This document shows, piece after piece, positions 13,341 through 21,008 of a stretch of DNA of 21,008 nt; the stretch's first letter is position 1, and each line of letters opens with the position of its first letter. The translations under genes were made by a program, and so were the position numbers. Source of the stretch: Promethearchaeota archaeon (lineage in GTDB: Archaea; Asgardarchaeota; Lokiarchaeia; Sigyniarchaeales; SOKP01); contig SDNY01000062.1 in the NCBI GenBank assembly GCA_004524535.1, forward strand, positions 1 through 21,008. Reading direction: 5' to 3'. The notes under the pieces were generated by a model. The model ran no database searches, was not told the origin of the DNA, and was given only the letters and a program-made list of their open reading frames with translations.

Positions 13341-14702
13341 ATGAATTCAGAAAAGATTTATCCCCTTTTTCTAAAAAAGCTTGAAAATCAGGTAAAAAAT
13401 CAAATCTTAGAGAATTTTAACGCTGATGATAAATCTGTAAAAGCTGAAAAATTCCGTATAATTATATCTTTTAAGGATATCTCGAAACGAGATGAATTTA
13501 TACTTAAAAATAAAAATTTAGTAATTTTAAAGCAATTCGATTTAATTCCATCTATTTCTTTAAATTTAACGAGAGATCAAATTCAAACCATACAAAATAA
13601 CAATTTAATAAAAAGAATTGAGGAAGATCAAAAATTATACCTATCAATGCTTCATGTTATTGAAGATATAGGGTTAAATAATTATCGTCGTTCCAAAAAG
13701 CCTTATTTGGGTAAAAATATTATAATTGGAATTATTGATAATGGCATAAATCAAGTGTATGATTCATTTAAGGGTGTAAAAATAAATCATTATTCTTTAA
13801 TTGAGCATAATAAAAAGGAAAAAATAACTCATGGAACCTTGATGGCAAATATAATTGTGAATCAATTTCAAGACGAAAATAAAAACATTATAGGTATTGC
13901 TCCAGATGCTAAAATAATTGATTTTGACATTTCAAATTCCAAAGAACAATATTTCTTCTCTGATATTCTGGGTGTTTTTGATTATATTATTCAAAACAAT
14001 ATCAAGGTTGATATTCTCTTAATACCTTTTACAACATTACATCCTTCTGATGGAAAGGATTCTCTTTCTTTATGCTGCAATTTATTAGTCGATAAAGGAT
14101 TTATAATAGTATGTCCGGCTGGTAATTTTGGTCCAGAATCATATACAATTGGAAGTCCCTCAGCAGCAGAAAAGGTCTTTACGATTGGTTCTTATACAAA
14201 AGATAAAAAAATATCTTATTTTAGTGGACGAGGTCCAACACTAGACGAAAGAATAAAGCCTGATTTTTGTTTACCTGGTTCTAAAATAGAAATCCCATTA
14301 TCAGAAGGAGTTCGAGTAAGATTATCAGGCACGAGTGTATCTGCAGCAATATGTGCTGGTTTAATAGCCTTAATTAAGGAATCTAATCCTAAGATGTCAT
14401 ATCCACAAATTTTTACGATAATTAAAAAGGCATGTATAACCTTAGGATATCAAAATATATCTCAAGGCTCGGGAACTATATTAATTTCGGATATTTTCAA
14501 AACAATTAAGGTTAAAAAAGGTAAAGATAAAGAAGTTGAAACTATTAAAAAAGAGGAAAAATTAGTATCTTATAATCACATTATGCTTAAAGCTTTAGGA
14601 ATTTCAATTGAATACTTTATATTTTTTATAATATTATTTTATTTAATCTATTATTTTGATTTTATCTTAAGATGGTTTATAAGAATTTTTGGAGTGATTT
14701 AA
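13341..14702 (+). CDS. S8 subtilisin-like serine protease with I9-like prodomain and C-terminal TM anchor
   Basis: Catalytic IIDNG, HGT and GTSVSA; oxyanion PAGN; SGRGPT..RIKPD; hydrophobic C-terminal tail. Confidence 0.9.
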   Translation: MNSEKIYPLFLKKLENQVKNQILENFNADDKSVKAEKFRIIISFKDISKRDEFILKNKNLVILKQFDLIPSISLNLTRDQIQTIQNNNLIKRIEEDQKLYLSMLHVIEDIGLNNYRRSKKPYLGKNIIIGIIDNGINQVYDSFKGVKINHYSLIEHNKKEKITHGTLMANIIVNQFQDENKNIIGIAPDAKIIDFDISNSKEQYFFSDILGVFDYIIQNNIKVDILLIPFTTLHPSDGKDSLSLCCNLLVDKGFIIVCPAGNFGPESYTIGSPSAAEKVFTIGSYTKDKKISYFSGRGPTLDERIKPDFCLPGSKIEIPLSEGVRVRLSGTSVSAAICAGLIALIKESNPKMSYPQIFTIIKKACITLGYQNISQGSGTILISDIFKTIKVKKGKDKEVETIKKEEKLVSYNHIMLKALGISIEYFIFFIILFYLIYYFDFILRWFIRIFGVI

Positions 14703-14703
14703 A

Positions 14704-15249
14704 ATTTTCCCCCTCTTTCATATAGCAGTACCTTTAATAATTTTTGAGATTCCTCAAATAAAGAAAAAATATAGAGTTAATAGGTTAGCATTAATAATTG
14801 GGTCTCTATTTCCTGATATTGCAGATAAATCTTTAATGTTTTTAAAGTTGATTAATGGTAGGGGGTATTTTCATTCGTTATTCATTGTTTTTCTCTGTTT
14901 TGGTATTTTATTTTTGTTAACTAAAGGGAATAAAGCAGTGTCGTTTCCTTTTTTAATTGGTATGCTTTTTCATTTATTATTAGATTTACCAAATATTCCG
15001 CTTTTTTATCCTTTTATATCATATGACTTCAAATACATTGATAATCCTTTACCCTATTGGATACATGATTTTCTTACCAAACCAGTTGTACAAGCAACAG
15101 AAATAATTGGGATTGTGTGTCTATTATTCATTGTAATAAGAAATAAATTATATAGCTTTAAAGATATAGCAGATTATCTTAGAACAAATCCTAAAGAAAT
15201 TATTTATTCAATAAAGAAAGATACGGAAATTGTAATTTCAGAAGATTAA
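14704..15249 (+). CDS. Membrane-bound metal-dependent hydrolase (YdjM/DUF457-like), probable ATT start
   Basis: Frame is open 44 codons upstream of ATG 14836 and encodes FPLFH and GSLFPDIADK, completing the H/PD/HS/HxxxD motif set. GGAGTGA RBS at 14691-14697. Confidence 0.8.
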   Translation: MFPLFHIAVPLIIFEIPQIKKKYRVNRLALIIGSLFPDIADKSLMFLKLINGRGYFHSLFIVFLCFGILFLLTKGNKAVSFPFLIGMLFHLLLDLPNIPLFYPFISYDFKYIDNPLPYWIHDFLTKPVVQATEIIGIVCLLFIVIRNKLYSFKDIADYLRTNPKEIIYSIKKDTEIVISED

Positions 15250-15290
15250 TTGTCTCGTGAACACTAGATTTTGCATTTACACTTTTTTTT

Positions 15291-15771
15291 GGTGGATGAA
15301 AAATTAAGTAATGATAAAATGACTTAAAAATTTTTTAAAGAACAATAGATAATATAATATTATCGAAATTCTATTTAAAATTATAATTTGAGCGTGAAAA
15401 TATTTGCCTAGATGTAAATCTTGTGGAAAAGAAATTGACGATTACCAATATCAGCAGTTTAAGGGTAAATGTTCTGATTGTGTTAGAGTAAAAAAAGCAG
15501 GTAAATCAGATGCAATAGGATGGGGGGCTTTTTTTGTAATAATGGGATTGCTTGCATTAGTTGCTGGAATTTTTCTTACTTTTCAGACCCAAAGTTTTGA
15601 AAGTATAATCTTTTTGGGTATAACAAGTTGCGCACTCTTAACATTAGGTGGTTTCTTAATACTCTATGGACGGAAATAATGTCTATTCCTTCTTTAAAAG
15701 TTCTATTGGAGGAATTATTATATTTGTAGAATTAGATTAACTTAATTCCACTACTAAATTTTTTATCCACC
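15291..15771. mobile_element. Non-autonomous TIR-bounded passenger cassette 1 (MIC/MITE-like)
   Basis: 23-bp TIRs at 15291-15313 and 15749-15771 (20/23 match), flanked by the 9-bp direct repeat CTTTTTTTT (15282-15290, 15772-15780). No transposase. Confidence 0.65.
15404..15679 (+). CDS. Small Zn-ribbon (CxxC-x15-CxxC) plus two-TM membrane protein, paralog A
   Basis: CKSC...CSDC, two hydrophobic helices, YGRK end; TTG start; co-linear with 18097-18372. Confidence 0.8.
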   Translation: MPRCKSCGKEIDDYQYQQFKGKCSDCVRVKKAGKSDAIGWGAFFVIMGLLALVAGIFLTFQTQSFESIIFLGITSCALLTLGGFLILYGRK

Positions 15772-15784
15772 CTTTTTTTTTTTC

Positions 15785-15883
15785 CTTTTTAAACTTTGAA
15801 AGTGAATATATATTATTCTAATATAAAAATTATTTAATCTTTGATTGAATAATACTTAATGAAATTATGAGTAAAAAGTTGCT
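15785..15883 (+). repeat. ERCC4 upstream region and first codons, copy 1
   Basis: Aligns with 18443-18539 at 86 of 99 columns (hand count). Confidence 0.9.
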
Positions 15884-16016
15884 TCAGATAATAATTGACC
15901 ATCGAGAACATAAGCTGAAAGAATTACTTGACCAAAAAAAGGATATAATTCAATATGAGTCAAAACAACTTGATATTGCTGATGTGATCGTTTCTAATGA
16001 GGTTATTTTAGAATAA
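15867..16016 (+). pseudogene. ERCC4/XPF 5' fragment 1 (49 aa)
   Basis: MSKKLLQIIIDHREHKL...QLDIADVIVSNEVILE*; about 26/49 identical to the N-terminus of the gene at 20392; stops at the ERK motif. Confidence 0.85.
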
Positions 16017-16150
16017 TATTTAATAACATATAGTAACACTTCTTACTTACATCTTTGAAAACTATTAAATCTTAATTTGGTTTAGTATCTTTAATTATTA
16101 GGTGTTTTAACGTATGACTTAAAAAACAATCATATTTGAGAATTTTATCT

Positions 16151-17524
16151 TTAAATCATTTTATTTTTTAAAGATTCAATATTAAGTTTGATTTTTTCTC
16201 CCAATTTACTATTTTCTAAATTATGCTCATTTAAGGTTTCTAATGCATTTTTTAATAAATCTAACGCCCGAGTGCTATCTCCCTGTTTGTGATATACCTT
16301 TCCAATATTATTTAAAGTAAGAGCGATTGTTGAGTGATTATTTTGGCTTTTTGCTAATTCAATAGCATGTTGGAATTTCTCCAAAGCTCTAGCATAATTA
16401 CCTAATTTATAATGTACTTTTCCAATACAATTGATATATATTGATTTATTTGATTGATTTGGTGATTTCTCTATAATTTCAACAGCTTTATTACATTTTT
16501 CCAATGCTAAATCATATTCTCTTTTTATTAAAGAAATTACACCAAGATAATTTAGAGAATTAGCTATATTTCCTGTTAATTCAAGTTCTAATGAATGTTT
16601 TAAAGCTTCTTCATACTTTATTAAAGCATCATAGTAATGATAATCAATGAGATCAAGTCCACCTAAGATATTAAGCAACTGAACTTTTAAAATTAATAGT
16701 AATTTCTTATTTTTTGAATCTTTCAATACATCTGCAATTTTTAATGCTTCAATACAAAAATTGTAAGCTTCCTGATAATTTTTCTTCTTAAGCAATATTG
16801 TACATATCATTAATGAGTTTTTTAATCTTTCTAGTGAATATCTATCACTTTCAGAGAAAGATAAATTTATTAAAAAATATTTATCTTCGCTATTTTTAAG
16901 TCTTTTTATATCTTCTTTTTTTAAAATCTTTTTTCTCATATTTTCAATCTTTTTTGATATTTTACGAATTCCTAAATTATCAAGGATATTAAAGTATCTA
17001 AAAGATTGTTTTAAATCTACTTCATTTTCCAATAAGCTCATAATTTTCAGGACTATTCCCTTTTTCATCATTTTAATTATGTCTAATATTTTTTTTTGTT
17101 GAAATTCTGAATTCTCAAGGATTTTACAAATCTCTAATAATCCCAATGGTGAACATTGAGGGTTTGCACAAATCTCTCCTAATTTTCGTCCTGTTTCCTC
17201 TCTTATCTCTCCTAAACTCACGGCTCGAGCACAATAGATTCCAGCTCTATTATAATCTCCAATTCTCAAATATGGTTCAATTAATTTTATTAATGCGGTT
17301 GATTTATTTAGACTGAGTAAATAAGCTAATTCATAAGATTTGATTGCCTTTTTGTACTGCTCATTAATATTATAAAGATCACCCAATATAATCCAATAAT
17401 TACTATCTGTTTCAAATTTTTTTTTTATATTTTTACAATAGTTAATTCCCTCTTCATACTCACCATTTAAAAGGCATTTTCTTATATAAAGAAGATCATC
17501 ATTAGAATTTTCCATATTATCCAT
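16151..17524 (-). CDS. Tetratricopeptide repeat protein
   Basis: Several TPR motifs, e.g. WIILGDLY...YKKAIKSYELA, SLNYLGVI, IGKVHYKLGNYARALEKFQHA and TLNNIGKVY. Confidence 0.9.
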   Translation of the reverse strand: MDNMENSNDDLLYIRKCLLNGEYEEGINYCKNIKKKFETDSNYWIILGDLYNINEQYKKAIKSYELAYLLSLNKSTALIKLIEPYLRIGDYNRAGIYCARAVSLGEIREETGRKLGEICANPQCSPLGLLEICKILENSEFQQKKILDIIKMMKKGIVLKIMSLLENEVDLKQSFRYFNILDNLGIRKISKKIENMRKKILKKEDIKRLKNSEDKYFLINLSFSESDRYSLERLKNSLMICTILLKKKNYQEAYNFCIEALKIADVLKDSKNKKLLLILKVQLLNILGGLDLIDYHYYDALIKYEEALKHSLELELTGNIANSLNYLGVISLIKREYDLALEKCNKAVEIIEKSPNQSNKSIYINCIGKVHYKLGNYARALEKFQHAIELAKSQNNHSTIALTLNNIGKVYHKQGDSTRALDLLKNALETLNEHNLENSKLGEKIKLNIESLKNKMI

Positions 17525-17638
17525 AAAACCTTCATTCTTTATGATTTTATATTTATTGGATTTATTAGTTTCTTTTATGTATCATAAATATTTAAATATT
17601 TTTGAAAATATAGTATAAAAACGTTATTGGACAACAAA

Positions 17639-17918
17639 TTAATTCATATTTTTCTTTAGTTTTAATTCTTCAATATAGAGTTAATTATTTTTTTTTAAAG
17701 GATTATCAGTTATTTTAAGACCATCTAAAATAGCTAAAGCAGTATTGTGATATTCAGTTGCTTTTTACTTACCTTGTTCCCCATATAACATAGCAATATT
17801 TTTGTATGCTATCGCCAGTTCTAATGGATTTTGAAAATTTTTTGCAATTTCAAGTGCTTTATTAAATCTATCTAACGCTTCAGAATACATCTTTTCTTTT
17901 AGATACCCATTCCCTATA
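17639..17918 (-). pseudogene. C-terminal remnant of a TPR paralog
   Basis: IGNGYLKEKMYSEALDRFNKALEIAK...NIAMLYGEQGK*KATEYHNTALAILDGLKITDNPLKKNN*LYIEELK aligns with the last ~90 aa of the 16151-17524 protein. Two in-frame stops; 5' part missing. Confidence 0.8.
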
Positions 17919-18030
17919 ACATTCGCTCCGTACGCTGTGGGAGTCACATTGATATATGGATCCTTCGGTTTAATGTGACACTGGGCTCCCTCCGCTGAAG
18001 TGTCGCAACCAGATGTGAGATTCGTTATCT
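17914..18030. other. GC-rich imperfect hairpin element, integron attC-like
   Basis: Bounded by ATAAC...GTTAT; internal stems GTCACATT/AATGTGAC, GGGAG/CTCCC and GACACT/AGTGTC; 51% GC over 17921-18020. Confidence 0.45.
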
Positions 18031-18045
18031 TTACACCAAAAAAAG

Positions 18046-18432
18046 GGGGGATATAAAATTCAGTGATTTAGATATTTTCTTAAATAGAATAAATAATCAT
18101 TTCCGCCCATAATAGACTAATAAGCCACCAATTATTAGTAATAATGATCCTATAGTCCACAAAAGTATTAATTCATCGGTGTTTGGTCGTGTGAATAAAA
18201 ACATTACTCCTACAGAAGTTACAATAATTCCTATTAAAAGAAGTAACGCACCAAAGCATGCAAAACTTCCACGACCTACTTTACCTACCCGAATACAATC
18301 TGAACATAGACCTTTATAATTTTTAAATTGGTAATCATCAATTTCTCTTCCACAAGATTTACATCTAGGCATAATTTATTATTTACATTTTTTAGTATTT
18401 AATTCTTTTTATCACTGAATTTGGTACCCAAT
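18046..18432. mobile_element. TIR-bounded passenger cassette 2
   Basis: IRs at 18049-18067 and 18411-18429 (16/19 match, perfect 12-bp AAATTCAGTGAT core); same motif family as cassette 1. Confidence 0.55.
18097..18372 (-). CDS. Small Zn-ribbon plus two-TM membrane protein, paralog B
   Basis: 91 aa, ungapped alignment to paralog A, 40/91 identical. Confidence 0.8.
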   Translation of the reverse strand: MPRCKSCGREIDDYQFKNYKGLCSDCIRVGKVGRGSFACFGALLLLIGIIVTSVGVMFLFTRPNTDELILLWTIGSLLLIIGGLLVYYGRK

Positions 18433-18442
18433 CTTTTTTTTT

Positions 18443-18539
18443 CTTTTTAAACTTTGAAAAAGAAAATATATTGTTCTAATATAAATTATTTTATATTTGA
18501 TTCAATAATACATAATGAATTGATGAGTAATAAGTTGCT
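18443..18539 (+). repeat. ERCC4 upstream region and first codons, copy 2
   Basis: Direct repeat of 15785-15883. Confidence 0.9.
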
Positions 18540-18556
18540 GATATAGTGATTTCTAA
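18523..18556 (+). pseudogene. ERCC4/XPF 5' fragment 2, internally deleted
   Basis: ATG AGT AAT AAG TTG CT (MSNKLL) is fused to GCT GAT ATA GTG ATT TCT AA (ADIVIS); similarity is lost after that. Confidence 0.7.
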
Positions 18557-18638
18557 GCATAAAATCTATAGCTAAACTGAAAAATGTTTAGAGATTATAC
18601 ATTTTTAAAGTAAAAAGATTTAATCAATATGATTTGTA

Positions 18639-20399
18639 ATGGTTTATAAATCTCCTGAAAGATATATTAAAATTAAAAAGGAATTATTAAAAGATATTTA
18701 TAAAGAATTAAAGAAAAAATCAGGTTTAACATATAAAGATATAAGTAATGAAATAGGTACGAATTTTGATAAAATTATTTTTAGGGGGGACCTCCTTTCC
18801 GAAAAATGCTTTAAAAAACTAAAAAAATTAATTATTAGAGAGTTAGGAAATGAATTTCTATCAAACTTTATTAAAAATGGAGACTTTCCCCATAAAACTA
18901 TAATAGGACGAGGTGGAAGTGAAGAAATAATATTAAAAGAAAATAATAAAAATGCTGAATTTGTTGGAATAATGCTTGGAGATGGAACACTTTATAACAA
19001 TGGTAATGTGGTTTCTGTAAGTCTTAATGGAGTTGATGAGGAAGATTATGTAAAATATGTGAAAAAATTAATGAGTGATATTTTTAAGAATTTTGAAATT
19101 CATGAGATTTGGGAAAGAAATAAATTTCCAAAATATAAACACAAAAAAGGACTTGAGCTATCTATTTTTTCACAAGCTGTACATTATTCACTTGTTTCAA
19201 TTGGTTTAGTTCCTGGAGATAAAGTAGAAAATCAAGTTAAAATTCCTGATTGGATTTATAAAAGAGATTCATTTAAAATTGGTTGTTTAAAAGGATTATT
19301 TGACACGGATGGCTCAATTTTTATTAATAAAAGAAATAGAAGTTTTGTTTTGAATTTTACGAATGGTTCAAAACCATTAGTTCAAGATTTTTATAAATTA
19401 TGTAATTCGCTTAACATTAAACCAATATCAAAAATATATGATGGATTAAATAAATCTAAGATTGAAACAAATAAAAGAGAAGTAATTAGAAAATTTTTAA
19501 ATATAGTAGATCCTGAAAAAATGAAAGAAACTTATAAAAAAAAATATTTAGGGACTAATTTAATTTATTTAAATACCTCTAAAAAAATCATAAAAGAAAT
19601 TAACGATAAAATTAAAAAAGATTATCCAAATGAATATAATCATCGTTATTCAAAAGAATTTACATTATACTTAAAAAAAATATGTGAAAAAATATTTGGT
19701 AAGAATAAAATTGATGAAATCAATGGGCATAAGTATACCTCCGAGATTTCTGATGAGATGATTGATTCTGCAATTGATAAAGCCCTTAAATTTAAATATC
19801 GACGATATAATAAACATTATGTAAAGAATTTGAAACACTTATTTGAAAAATTAGGTTCTTATTTATTTATGATAGAATATTTAAAAGAACATGATGAAAG
19901 ACCCATACTATTTGAAGAGAAAATTAGAGATCACCTAAGGCAATATTTTATAGAAAAGAATATATCTTATGAGAAATGGTTAAAAAAATATAAAATAAAA
20001 AAAATCCTAATAGATAAAAACAATAATGAGGTCTTAGAATTCCCTTTAAAATTAAGAAGAATAGTTGGCCAACAAATTTTCAAAATTCTAAATAATATAG
20101 ATCTTAAAAAAACAGATAATCAAGTGTTAAAAGAATTAATTGCCAGATTTAATGAGTTAGATATAGTTTTATTAACTTGGTTATTAGACAAACCTCATTA
20201 TAAACAAGCTCTGACAAAATATTTTATTGATTTCATAAGATTAATTCGAAAAATCAATGAATTGTATAATTTAAAAGAAAGTTATAGTGCTTATAGTATT
20301 GCAAATGATTCAAATTTGGATATCTCTCTTTCCTATAATTCTATAAAAGATATTTTAAATGATTTAATAAAATATTATCAAAACTATTACAATGAATAG
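18639..20399 (+). CDS. Free-standing double-motif LAGLIDADG (DOD-type) endonuclease with N-terminal HTH and long C-terminal extension
   Basis: HTH-like KKKSGLTYKDISNEIG; motifs AEFVGIMLGDG and CLKGLFDTDG; KIPDWI block; no intein splicing motifs seen. Confidence 0.85.
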   Translation: MVYKSPERYIKIKKELLKDIYKELKKKSGLTYKDISNEIGTNFDKIIFRGDLLSEKCFKKLKKLIIRELGNEFLSNFIKNGDFPHKTIIGRGGSEEIILKENNKNAEFVGIMLGDGTLYNNGNVVSVSLNGVDEEDYVKYVKKLMSDIFKNFEIHEIWERNKFPKYKHKKGLELSIFSQAVHYSLVSIGLVPGDKVENQVKIPDWIYKRDSFKIGCLKGLFDTDGSIFINKRNRSFVLNFTNGSKPLVQDFYKLCNSLNIKPISKIYDGLNKSKIETNKREVIRKFLNIVDPEKMKETYKKKYLGTNLIYLNTSKKIIKEINDKIKKDYPNEYNHRYSKEFTLYLKKICEKIFGKNKIDEINGHKYTSEISDEMIDSAIDKALKFKYRRYNKHYVKNLKHLFEKLGSYLFMIEYLKEHDERPILFEEKIRDHLRQYFIEKNISYEKWLKKYKIKKILIDKNNNEVLEFPLKLRRIVGQQIFKILNNIDLKKTDNQVLKELIARFNELDIVLLTWLLDKPHYKQALTKYFIDFIRLIRKINELYNLKESYSAYSIANDSNLDISLSYNSIKDILNDLIKYYQNYYNE

Positions 20400-21008
20400 A
20401 AACAAACCTTTAAAAATCATCATTGATGATCGTGAGACCAAATTATGTTCATTATTTGATAAAAAAGAAGACAGAATCTTAGAATATGAAAAAAAGAGAT
20501 TAAGTGTTGCGGATATCATTGTATCAAGCGAAATTGGTATTGAACGAAAAGAAGGTTTTGATTTCGCTAATTCTTTAACTGATAATCGCTTATTTGATCA
20601 ATTATTAAGGCTGAAAGATAATTATAATATCCCTATTCTTATTTTAGAAGGATTGAATCAAAATGTATTTAATAACATTGGAGTTTCGATCAATAGTATT
20701 TATGGGGCACTTTCTTTTATATCTTATAAATTACGTATATGCGTTATACCCACTATTAATTTAGAACATACAGCAATTGTAATAGAAAGAATCGCCTATA
20801 GAGAACAAGTCAAAGACGATTTACCATTGATAAGGAGAGTAGCTCCGAAAGAAATGTCTAAAAAGGATAGAAGGTCGTTTATAATTGAAGGGCTAATTGA
20901 TATTGGTCCAAAAAAGGCAAAAGCTCTAATTGAAAAATTTAAAACTCCTTATAATGTATTTAAAGCAATAAAAAAAACAGAGATTTTATTTACTCGCACT
21001 AACAATCC
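20392..21008 (+). CDS. xpf: ERCC4/XPF-family structure-specific endonuclease (short form), 3'-truncated by window edge
   Basis: Not in the ORF track. MNRNKPLKIIIDDRE...ADIIVSSEIGIERKEGFDF...RLFDQL...ILILEG...HhH GLIDIGPKKAKALIEKF. Overlaps the LAGLIDADG gene by 8 nt. Confidence 0.92.
   Translation, partial: MNRNKPLKIIIDDRETKLCSLFDKKEDRILEYEKKRLSVADIIVSSEIGIERKEGFDFANSLTDNRLFDQLLRLKDNYNIPILILEGLNQNVFNNIGVSINSIYGALSFISYKLRICVIPTINLEHTAIVIERIAYREQVKDDLPLIRRVAPKEMSKKDRRSFIIEGLIDIGPKKAKALIEKFKTPYNVFKAIKKTEILFTRTNN

Follow-up and report, generated by a model that had tools for sequence, protein, structure and literature searches.

A candidate terminus-replacing LAGLIDADG homing cassette at an ERCC4 locus of an Asgard archaeon

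Homing that requires neither an intron nor an intein and that proceeds by the replacement of a gene end is documented for fungal mitochondria (PMC3630166) and for yeast nuclei (PMC7282813). In the former case, the elements are the mORFs of Allomyces (atp6) and Glomus (atp6, atp9, cox2, and nad3) (Beaudet et al. 2013, PMC3630166); in the latter, WHO elements of Torulaspora and Lachancea yeasts target the gene FBA1 (Coughlan et al. 2020, PMC7282813). N-terminal duplications tied to intron mobility are described for Tremella (PMC8393795). With respect to Asgard archaea, an rRNA-intron-type endonuclease is thought to guide the integration of an 8-kb Heimdallarchaeal element (PMC8813620). In their accessible portions, two papers on Asgard mobile elements (one of them PMC8813620) mention homing endonucleases only in other contexts, and no report of terminus-replacing homing in archaeal chromosomes was found in the portions of the literature searched. 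Here, we describe a locus on contig SDNY01000062.1 of a Promethearchaeota archaeon (Lokiarchaeia), which belongs to a metagenome bin of 3.66 Mb and 198 contigs. The window analysed is the entire contig of 21,008 nt; its 3' end falls within the host gene, at residue 205 (..TRTNN). This gene codes for a short archaeal ERCC4/XPF-type nuclease (Pfam ERCC4, 72.9 bits at a cut-off of 24), in which the sequence ..ADIIVSSEIGIERKEGFDF.. with the catalytic ERK motif is intact. It is probable, in our assessment, that a free-standing LAGLIDADG homing cassette replaced the 5' part of ERCC4 with a foreign version and thereby displaced the native start.

The ERCC4 5' end is present in the window as three tandem versions, two of which end just 5' of the AIERK codons. 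A LAGLIDADG endonuclease gene coding for 586 amino acids (aa) is located at 18639..20399 on the plus strand, between the full host gene and the displaced copy of its terminus; this is the layout of a terminus-replacing element. According to the sequence comparisons given below, the displaced terminus is native and the terminus in use foreign, and the trees of the two gene parts are discordant. An earlier note on this DNA, which was made from the sequence alone, had already proposed the three tandem 5' ends; most items were found at the coordinates it gave, and two were refined. It had also suggested that foreign DNA follows each break, and this is the case: downstream of the first break lies a TPR gene (16151-17524, minus strand), and downstream of the second the LAGLIDADG gene.

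The outermost version, named fragment A (15867..16004, plus strand), comprises codons 1-46 of the native gene and is preceded by the native ERCC4 upstream region P_A (15774..15866, plus strand). For comparison, we used 29 ERCC4 loci drawn from 40 related genomes, with G008 as the closest relative. P_A and fragment A form a single alignment block of 224 nt with G008; in the coding part, the identity is 95% at the nucleotide and 83% at the amino acid level. The final 44 nt, up to position 15998, are identical to G008. The native sequence extends to 16004 (..AAT GAG GTT), i.e. to ..VSNEV right before AIERK; we set the end at this position because the uninvaded database allele P0054, which is close to fragment A, reads ..VSNEVAIERK. 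The open reading frame (ORF) that had been noticed at 15867-16016 does exist, with its native part ending at 16004 and its stop at 16016. Fragment A contains no frameshift and is kept as well as the functional neighbours (95% as compared to 91% and 88% nucleotide identity to G008). Its amino acid identity to the intact ERCC4 is 54% (26/48), in agreement with the previous estimate of about 53% for a divergent N-terminus of the intact gene. The junction DNA at 16005..16150 forms the 3' flanking sequence of the TPR gene; it resembles neither native ERCC4 (score attained by 391 of 500 shuffles) nor the other contigs of the genome. The TPR gene itself (457 aa; Pfam TPR_12, E 1.2e-22) is carried DNA: it has no ortholog at the ERCC4 locus of the relatives and only generic TPR-repeat matches, the best with E 1.5e-19 for residues 296-456.

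The second version is preceded by P_B (18434..18522, plus strand), a copy of the ERCC4 upstream region which is 87-90% identical to P_A: positions 15776-15827 and 18434-18485 agree by 90% over 52 nt, positions 15823-15883 and 18479-18539 by 87% over 61 nt. A likeness of about 87% had been noted before. Fragment B (18523..18557, plus strand) starts with ATG..AAGTTGCT, followed by GATATAGTGATTTCTAAG, which codes for ADIVISK and ends at 18557. We interpret the joint as the loss of 97 nt between two copies of the word TTGCT, which would leave codons 1-6 and 40-47 of a decayed 5' end. With respect to this fragment, the location proposed earlier (18523-18556) was correct and the extent was not, as the codons for ADIVISK follow the deletion. 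The assignment is based on a site alignment and on a test of the 21-mer of fragment B: at least 16 of 21 positions match in 13 of 22 ERCC4 loci, always at the ADI(V/I)(V/I)S site, with a best value of 19/21; among 200 shuffled controls, two reach 18/21 and none reaches 19/21. As a caveat, positions 18607-18633 also align collinearly to native codons 23-31, albeit weakly (16 of 500 shuffles reach the score). P_B plus fragment B, when aligned to G008, shows a likeness which is, as judged by eye, similar to that between P_B and P_A. Most likely, P_B acts as the promoter of the endonuclease-ERCC4 pair and as the left homology arm of the cassette. The 3' end of the endonuclease gene has no significant likeness to the ERCC4 promoter (the score was attained by 34 and by 19 of 300 shuffles).

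The break points of A and B lie directly 5' of AIERK and within ~9 nt of each other, which bears out the proposal that similarity is lost close to the ERK codons. In the native gene, this position immediately precedes the stretch with the highest nucleotide conservation, GCa AT. GAa AGa AAa GAa GGa TTt GAT. Such a common end would also be expected if two successive homing events had taken place on this chromosome: a first element, whose endonuclease gene was later lost, would have displaced A and put in a gene with P_B and B at its head, and the 586-aa element would then have displaced B. The WHO model builds stacks of this kind, with the newest element nearest to the full gene (PMC7282813). 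However, the outer fragment A should then be older and more decayed; yet A is pristine (95% nucleotide identity to G008) and it is B which has lost 97 nt. Moreover, 12 family queries detected no remnant of an endonuclease between fragment A and the small gene zr91B described below (best E 0.56). The suggestion of the earlier note that the locus was hit more than once is at odds with these opposite decay states, and we consider two hits unlikely. Because A is pristine and B decayed, fragment B more probably arrived together with the cassette.

The third version, the intact gene, is a mosaic. When it is compared with G008 in windows of 15 codons, the nucleotide identity amounts to 57-62% in codons 1-45 and to 47-78% in codons 45-150; from codon 150 onwards, it is 89-96%. 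Residues 141-150 differ at 14 of their 30 nt and residues 151-160 at 2 of 30, and the mosaic boundary is located at residues 150-152 (nt ~20840-20847). The foreign-type part, codons 1 to ~151, occupies 20392..20845 (plus strand) and overlaps the stop of the endonuclease gene by the 8 nt (20392-20399) that had been noticed before. The native part, codons ~152-205, occupies 20846..21008 (plus strand) and deviates from G008 at 11 positions in 165 nt (93% identity). About 40 codons lie beyond the contig end and were not found on any contig of the genome; the C-terminal region of the protein is presumably a helix-hairpin-helix region.

Two database proteins, P0052 (89%) and P0053 (90%), carry the same foreign-type 5' part. 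Over residues 1-140, the window ERCC4, P0052, and P0053 are mutually 85-100% identical in 20-residue windows; the best native match to this part, among the 120 matches listed, reaches 58-85% over residues 1-100. Past residue 160, the mutual identity of the three drops to 70-85%, and the closest native 3' parts are P0058 for the window gene (98%, 46 columns), P0103 for P0052 (97%, 86 columns), and P0067 for P0053 (88%, 86 columns). In a tree of residues 1-155, the three sequences constitute a clade with 100% support in the Shimodaira-Hasegawa-like approximate likelihood ratio test (SH-aLRT) and a stem of 0.33; it is placed beside P0134, which has a one-codon insertion (..ILEYEKK..) in common with it. 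For residues 160 to the end, the approximately unbiased (AU) test rejects the three-sequence clade (p 0.0017). Due to the common 5' parts, the match of the 3' parts to different native lineages, and the AU test, the 5' part of ~150 codons has moved among at least three host backgrounds, and the cassette appears to have moved with it. A discordance of the two gene parts had been anticipated by the earlier note and was found; the breakpoint, which it had expected at codon 48, is however at codon ~150-152 (nt ~20840) and not near ERK, and the replaced tract comprises ~150 codons instead of 48. The ends of the fragments (codon 46-49) and the mosaic boundary (codon 150-152) are different positions in the gene and do not mark one and the same cut site. 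Around V|AIERK, the cassette allele differs from the native one at 7 of 22 positions, as counted by hand on the alignment rows.

In the relatives, the site is empty, as the earlier note had presumed. The gene order is S8 peptidase, YdjM-like gene, ERCC4, with no insert, and the endonuclease, the TPR protein, and the zr91 proteins have no match in any of the 29 ERCC4 loci. The YdjM-like gene is situated directly 5' of ERCC4 in 14 of them, with gaps of ~100-190 nt (118 nt in G008). The window has retained this native flank: the subtilase (Peptidase_S8) gene at 13341..14702 (plus strand; Pfam PF00082, E 1.2e-34), which is 86% identical to G008 at the amino acid and 88% at the nucleotide level, was used as synteny anchor, and the gene of the YdjM-like membrane protein (14836..15249, plus strand; 137 aa, Pfam PF04307) shows 91% nucleotide identity.

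Some relatives have ERCC4 sequences that are irregular in other respects. The ortholog of G019 (L052, G019:C124, 6560-6900, minus strand) contains, at another place of its 5' part, a frameshifting deletion of ~100 nt between ..KIIID and ..IIVSKDVAIERK; this reflects a pseudogene or, alternatively, a fault in the assembly. In G014 (L050, G014:C10, 6005-6211), a 68-aa ERCC4 5' fragment which includes the ERK motif lies at an unrelated locus, between iron-sulfur protein genes; it breaks at residue ~64, and there is no endonuclease gene nearby. G012 (L051, G012:C82, 14152-14640, minus strand) harbours a GC-rich truncated ERCC4 paralog of 162 aa, which is located 11 kb from the normal ERCC4 and is probably foreign DNA. 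None of these cases is an instance of the event described here.

The 586-aa protein has two motifs, ..IMLGDG (residues 107-116, with D115) and ..LFDTDG (with D224). Pfam LAGLIDADG_3 was assigned to the second domain only (residues 212-289; 37.2 bits at a cut-off of 22.5). Residues G114, D115, G116, T223, D224, and G225, among them both catalytic aspartates, are invariant in all 12 aligned family members. The AlphaFold model has a mean predicted local distance difference test (pLDDT) value of 86.6. A Foldseek search assigned to the core (residues ~100-300) the enzymes I-Tsp061I (E 1.4e-7) and I-DmoI (E 1.1e-5), with template modelling (TM) scores by target of 0.64-0.72; altogether, 74 PDB chains were found at E <= 0.001, with WhiA and maturases ranking after the intron enzymes. 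Based on this model, the protein is predicted to be a monomeric double-motif LAGLIDADG homing endonuclease with a saddle-type two-domain fold. The core is extended by helical segments, ~95 aa at the N-terminus and ~290 aa at the C-terminus; for the C-terminal 287 residues, the ESM Atlas offered no usable match (TM at most 0.37), and a sequence search of the PDB with the family profile gave no match. The gene has its own start and stop. As Pfam indicates no Hint or intein domain and no Rfam family matches, the gene is free-standing, as the earlier note had claimed, and for the same reasons an intron- or intein-borne homing endonuclease was rejected.

Close homologs of the endonuclease are P0001 (94%) and P0002 (88%), both of which have 586 aa and end with ..YNE. 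The ending TAC AAT GAA TAG contains ATG AAT AGA, i.e. MNR.., the start of the window ERCC4 and of P0053; a variant TAC AAT GAG TAA would contain ATG AGT AAA, i.e. MSK.., the start of P0052. This pattern fits the same endonuclease/ERCC4 overlap in all three hosts.

Family members were examined at 96 genome loci and at 80 metagenome loci among the matches listed. Their distribution is patchy, with a family match in 10 of the 40 related genomes, G000 included. In the genome studied here, the endonuclease has two paralogs (37-38% identical), neither of which is next to ERCC4. One paralog of 822 aa (L002, G000:C12, 451-3279) lies on a contig of 3.7 kb, where it faces the 3' end of a gene with TFIIB repeats (TFB) in convergent orientation; the short flank contains no displaced fragment, and the locus may represent another terminus-directed insertion. 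Homologs do not consistently precede ERCC4, a point which the earlier note had proposed to check: ERCC4 is present in none of the 96 genome loci, and in three of the 80 metagenome loci (L153, L159, and L161) members of a different clade are convergent at the 3' end of the same short ERCC4. These share 64-80% mutual identity and 33-39% identity with the window endonuclease. L153 and L159 also possess a displaced ERCC4 3' fragment, which starts with ..KGIQGPL. Between this fragment and the endonuclease gene lies a Roadblock/zinc-ribbon gene in L153 and a 91-aa ORF in L159; the baggage varies, since the two loci carry different genes at this place.

Displaced termini also border family members in unrelated host genes. 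In L007, a locus of the same genus, an intact gene with metallo-beta-lactamase fold is accompanied by an endonuclease gene and a displaced terminus (49-51% aa identity over 55 residues). The same arrangement was found for an intact FAD (flavin adenine dinucleotide) oxidoreductase gene in L072 (59% over 37 residues) and for an intact gene of an AMP-binding enzyme in L165 (78% over 46 residues). In the metagenome scan, none of the endonuclease relatives among the matches listed exceeded 40% identity, and viral contigs gave five distant matches of 25-32%, none of them close. Short LAGLIDADG_3 genes in L106 (Planctomycetales) and L121 (Omnitrophota) are flanked by duplicated segments whose translations are tRNA-like in look; these would represent a different setting of the same domain.

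The fold matches and the family data also bear on an alternative in which the 586-aa protein does not cut and has been domesticated as a WhiA-type DNA-binding protein with LAGLIDADG fold; the mosaic and the fragments would then stem from ordinary recombination and gene transfer among Lokiarchaeia, with the gene as a passenger. We regard this explanation as quite unlikely. WhiA structures do occur among the fold matches, the protein has large extra domains, paralogs exist in the genome, and 27 of 36 long-form loci lack a flanking duplication. On the other hand, both motif aspartates are invariant (12/12), the distribution is patchy, duplicated gene ends are repeatedly located right at the borders of family members, in host genes that are unrelated, and the same cassette was found in three host backgrounds.

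For the favoured explanation, the terminus-replacing homing cassette, which upholds the core idea of the earlier note and corrects its details, the following course of events can be proposed. The cassette would have three parts: P_B plus the decayed fragment B, with the functions of a left arm and a promoter; the endonuclease gene; and foreign ERCC4 codons 1 to ~151, whose translation would be coupled to that of the endonuclease via the 8-nt overlap. The enzyme would cut uninvaded ERCC4 alleles at or next to the sequence coding for ..VS-x-x-V|AIERK, a position chosen because two fragments of different age end there, and the break would be repaired from a cassette-bearing copy. Since the distance of the foreign tract from native alleles (nucleotide identity about 60-77%) would prevent recombination inside it, the right crossover would take place only past codon ~151, which would explain the constant right boundary across the three hosts. 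The left cut end would not have been resolved in the decayed arm; instead, it would have been joined without homology to donor DNA ~2.5 kb further upstream. In consequence, fragment A (codons 1-46) would have remained in place along with the native promoter, and the donor's TPR gene, the zr91B unit, the promoter copy, and the old fragment B would have entered as baggage. Fragment B would then be the cassette's old left arm from an earlier host.

Several findings weigh against this course of events. A flank-to-flank match was detected in only 9 of 36 testable long-form loci, and these nine comprise three clear terminus fragments, one paralog pair, and five short repeats of unclear nature. With 2-kb flanks, matches occur in 8 of 63 real spans, as compared to 6 of 137 control spans of the same loci. 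The fragment boundary and the mosaic boundary lie apart, unlike in WHO elements, and the cut site could be elsewhere. Furthermore, the stacked arrangement of A and B is known from one contig only, and the donor's upstream DNA with the TPR gene lacks the conserved synteny which is expected of a close relative. For P0052 and P0053, an association with P0002 and P0001 is deduced from the logic of the overlap only. Finally, WhiA, a regulator with LAGLIDADG fold which is not a nuclease, is among the fold matches.

Since the bin consists of 198 contigs and the contig terminates within ERCC4, we also considered whether the assembler merged strains with and without the cassette. The whole stretch is found in the probable source run only; other sequencing runs contain 3-15% of the sampled words. 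However, the repeats are only 87-90% alike over ~110 nt, and their short exact words are poor bridges for an assembler; in addition, the mosaic gene is also present in two other database proteins. A tandem arrangement that is an artefact is therefore very unlikely. With respect to the contig end, we note that positions 21006-21008 are 1-2 codons away from the start of the displaced ERCC4 3' fragments (..KGIQGPL) in L153 (1-114) and L159 (99-218). The assembly may have broken here owing to polymorphism at the ERCC4 3' site or to another endonuclease insertion.

Two small units adjoin the promoter copies. The first is an insert of ~480 nt at 15291..15771 (plus strand), which lies between inverted repeats in a T-run before the ERCC4 promoter; G008 lacks this insert and has a continuous T-run. 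The 19-nt ends of the insert match as inverted repeats at 17 of 19 positions, and it contains the gene of a 91-aa zinc-ribbon membrane protein, zr91A (15404-15679, plus strand). The second unit, at 18045..18433 (minus strand), precedes the ERCC4-type promoter directly and is bounded by inverted repeats (18038-18067 and 18411-18440) that are 80% complementary; it contains zr91B (18097-18372, minus strand), a 91-aa gene with an orientation opposite to zr91A and 43% aa identity to it. The two genes are 80% alike over the first ~100 nt, and no other DNA copies exist in the genome. Both units are placed in the T-run just before the ERCC4-type promoter, in opposite orientations, and may constitute a small site-specific or invertible element. 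The left flank of the zr91B unit does not significantly resemble the 3' flank of the YdjM-like gene (45 of 300 shuffles). An insertion driven by an integrase or a transposase, with the endonuclease gene as cargo, would agree with inverted-repeat units next to both promoter copies. Given that 15999-20391 contains no integrase or transposase ORF, that the outer joints show no att-like direct repeats, and that the zr91 units lie outside of the ERCC4 break points, we find this explanation hardly credible. The remaining DNA upstream of the second unit comprises a TPR gene fragment (17765..17947, minus strand; 60 aa, Pfam TPR_12, E 4.3e-7) and, at 17950-18040, a GC-rich stretch amid an AT-rich region, which contains no tRNA and has no Rfam match. 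No tRNA gene was found across the whole window and no Rfam family at E <= 1 in 15000-21008.

A comparison with known systems allows us to classify the locus. The best structural matches of the endonuclease core, I-Tsp061I and I-DmoI, are likewise monomeric and have two motifs; however, they are rRNA-intron enzymes of ~180-200 residues, whereas the protein studied here is not associated with an intron, is three times as long, and shares 12-16% identity with them. The phage endonucleases SegF and MobE, known for "intronless homing", are free-standing, spread by a break in the endonuclease-free allele, and co-convert flanking markers, as in the cassette model. In contrast to the cassette, they are located between genes, there is no duplicate gene terminus, and they belong to the GIY-YIG and HNH families.

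The likeness to WHO elements is more extensive (PMC7282813): in both systems, a free-standing homing endonuclease gene lies beside a full-length host gene, one gene end has been swapped for a resistant foreign version, and the old end is pushed outward as a homology-arm fragment; the trees of the two gene parts are discordant, and stacks of fragments are possible. As to the differences (PMC7282813), WHO elements reside in the yeast nucleus and replace the 3' end, whereas here the 5' end has been replaced in an archaeal chromosome, and the fragment and mosaic boundaries, which coincide in WHO, are at codon 46-49 and codon ~151. The WHO protein is intein-like (Hint) and has a zinc finger, whereas the endonuclease described here combines a double LAGLIDADG core with helical extensions and has no Hint domain according to Pfam. 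Moreover, unrelated genes are present here between the fragment and the endonuclease gene. The cassette works like a WHO element and is not a member of the WHO protein family.

In mORFs (PMC3630166), a protein gene has received an ORF of LAGLIDADG or GIY-YIG type along with a foreign version of the gene's terminus; the native terminus was left as a duplicate that groups with close relatives, and the inserted terminus groups elsewhere. These elements, however, are mitochondrial, affect the carboxy terminus in the cases considered, and are often in frame with the host gene (PMC3630166). Here, the target is a DNA-repair gene on the chromosome of an Asgard archaeon, the ORF is separate and overlapping, and ~150 codons of the 5' part were replaced.

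Whether the finding can be generalized is, in our view, evenly balanced. Large LAGLIDADG cassettes might form an expanded family in Promethearchaeota (Lokiarchaeia); by terminus swap, they would home into ordinary chromosomal protein genes, create mosaics, and move baggage genes between lineages, as a prokaryotic counterpart of WHO/HO elements and mORFs; ERCC4 would be a hot target with two sites, attacked by two clades. If this is true, selfish endonucleases reshuffle parts of core genes between Asgard lineages, which bears on the gene trees used in work on the origin of eukaryotes, and ERCC4 phylogenies in the Lokiarchaeia-type group, being mosaic, have to be interpreted with caution. Cargo genes would gain a hitch-hiking route between genomes, and a large new set of natural meganucleases with long recognition modules would become available. 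When compared with the mORFs and the WHO elements, the ERCC4 cassette is a selfish element of a known type, which occurs in a new form in an Asgard chromosome.

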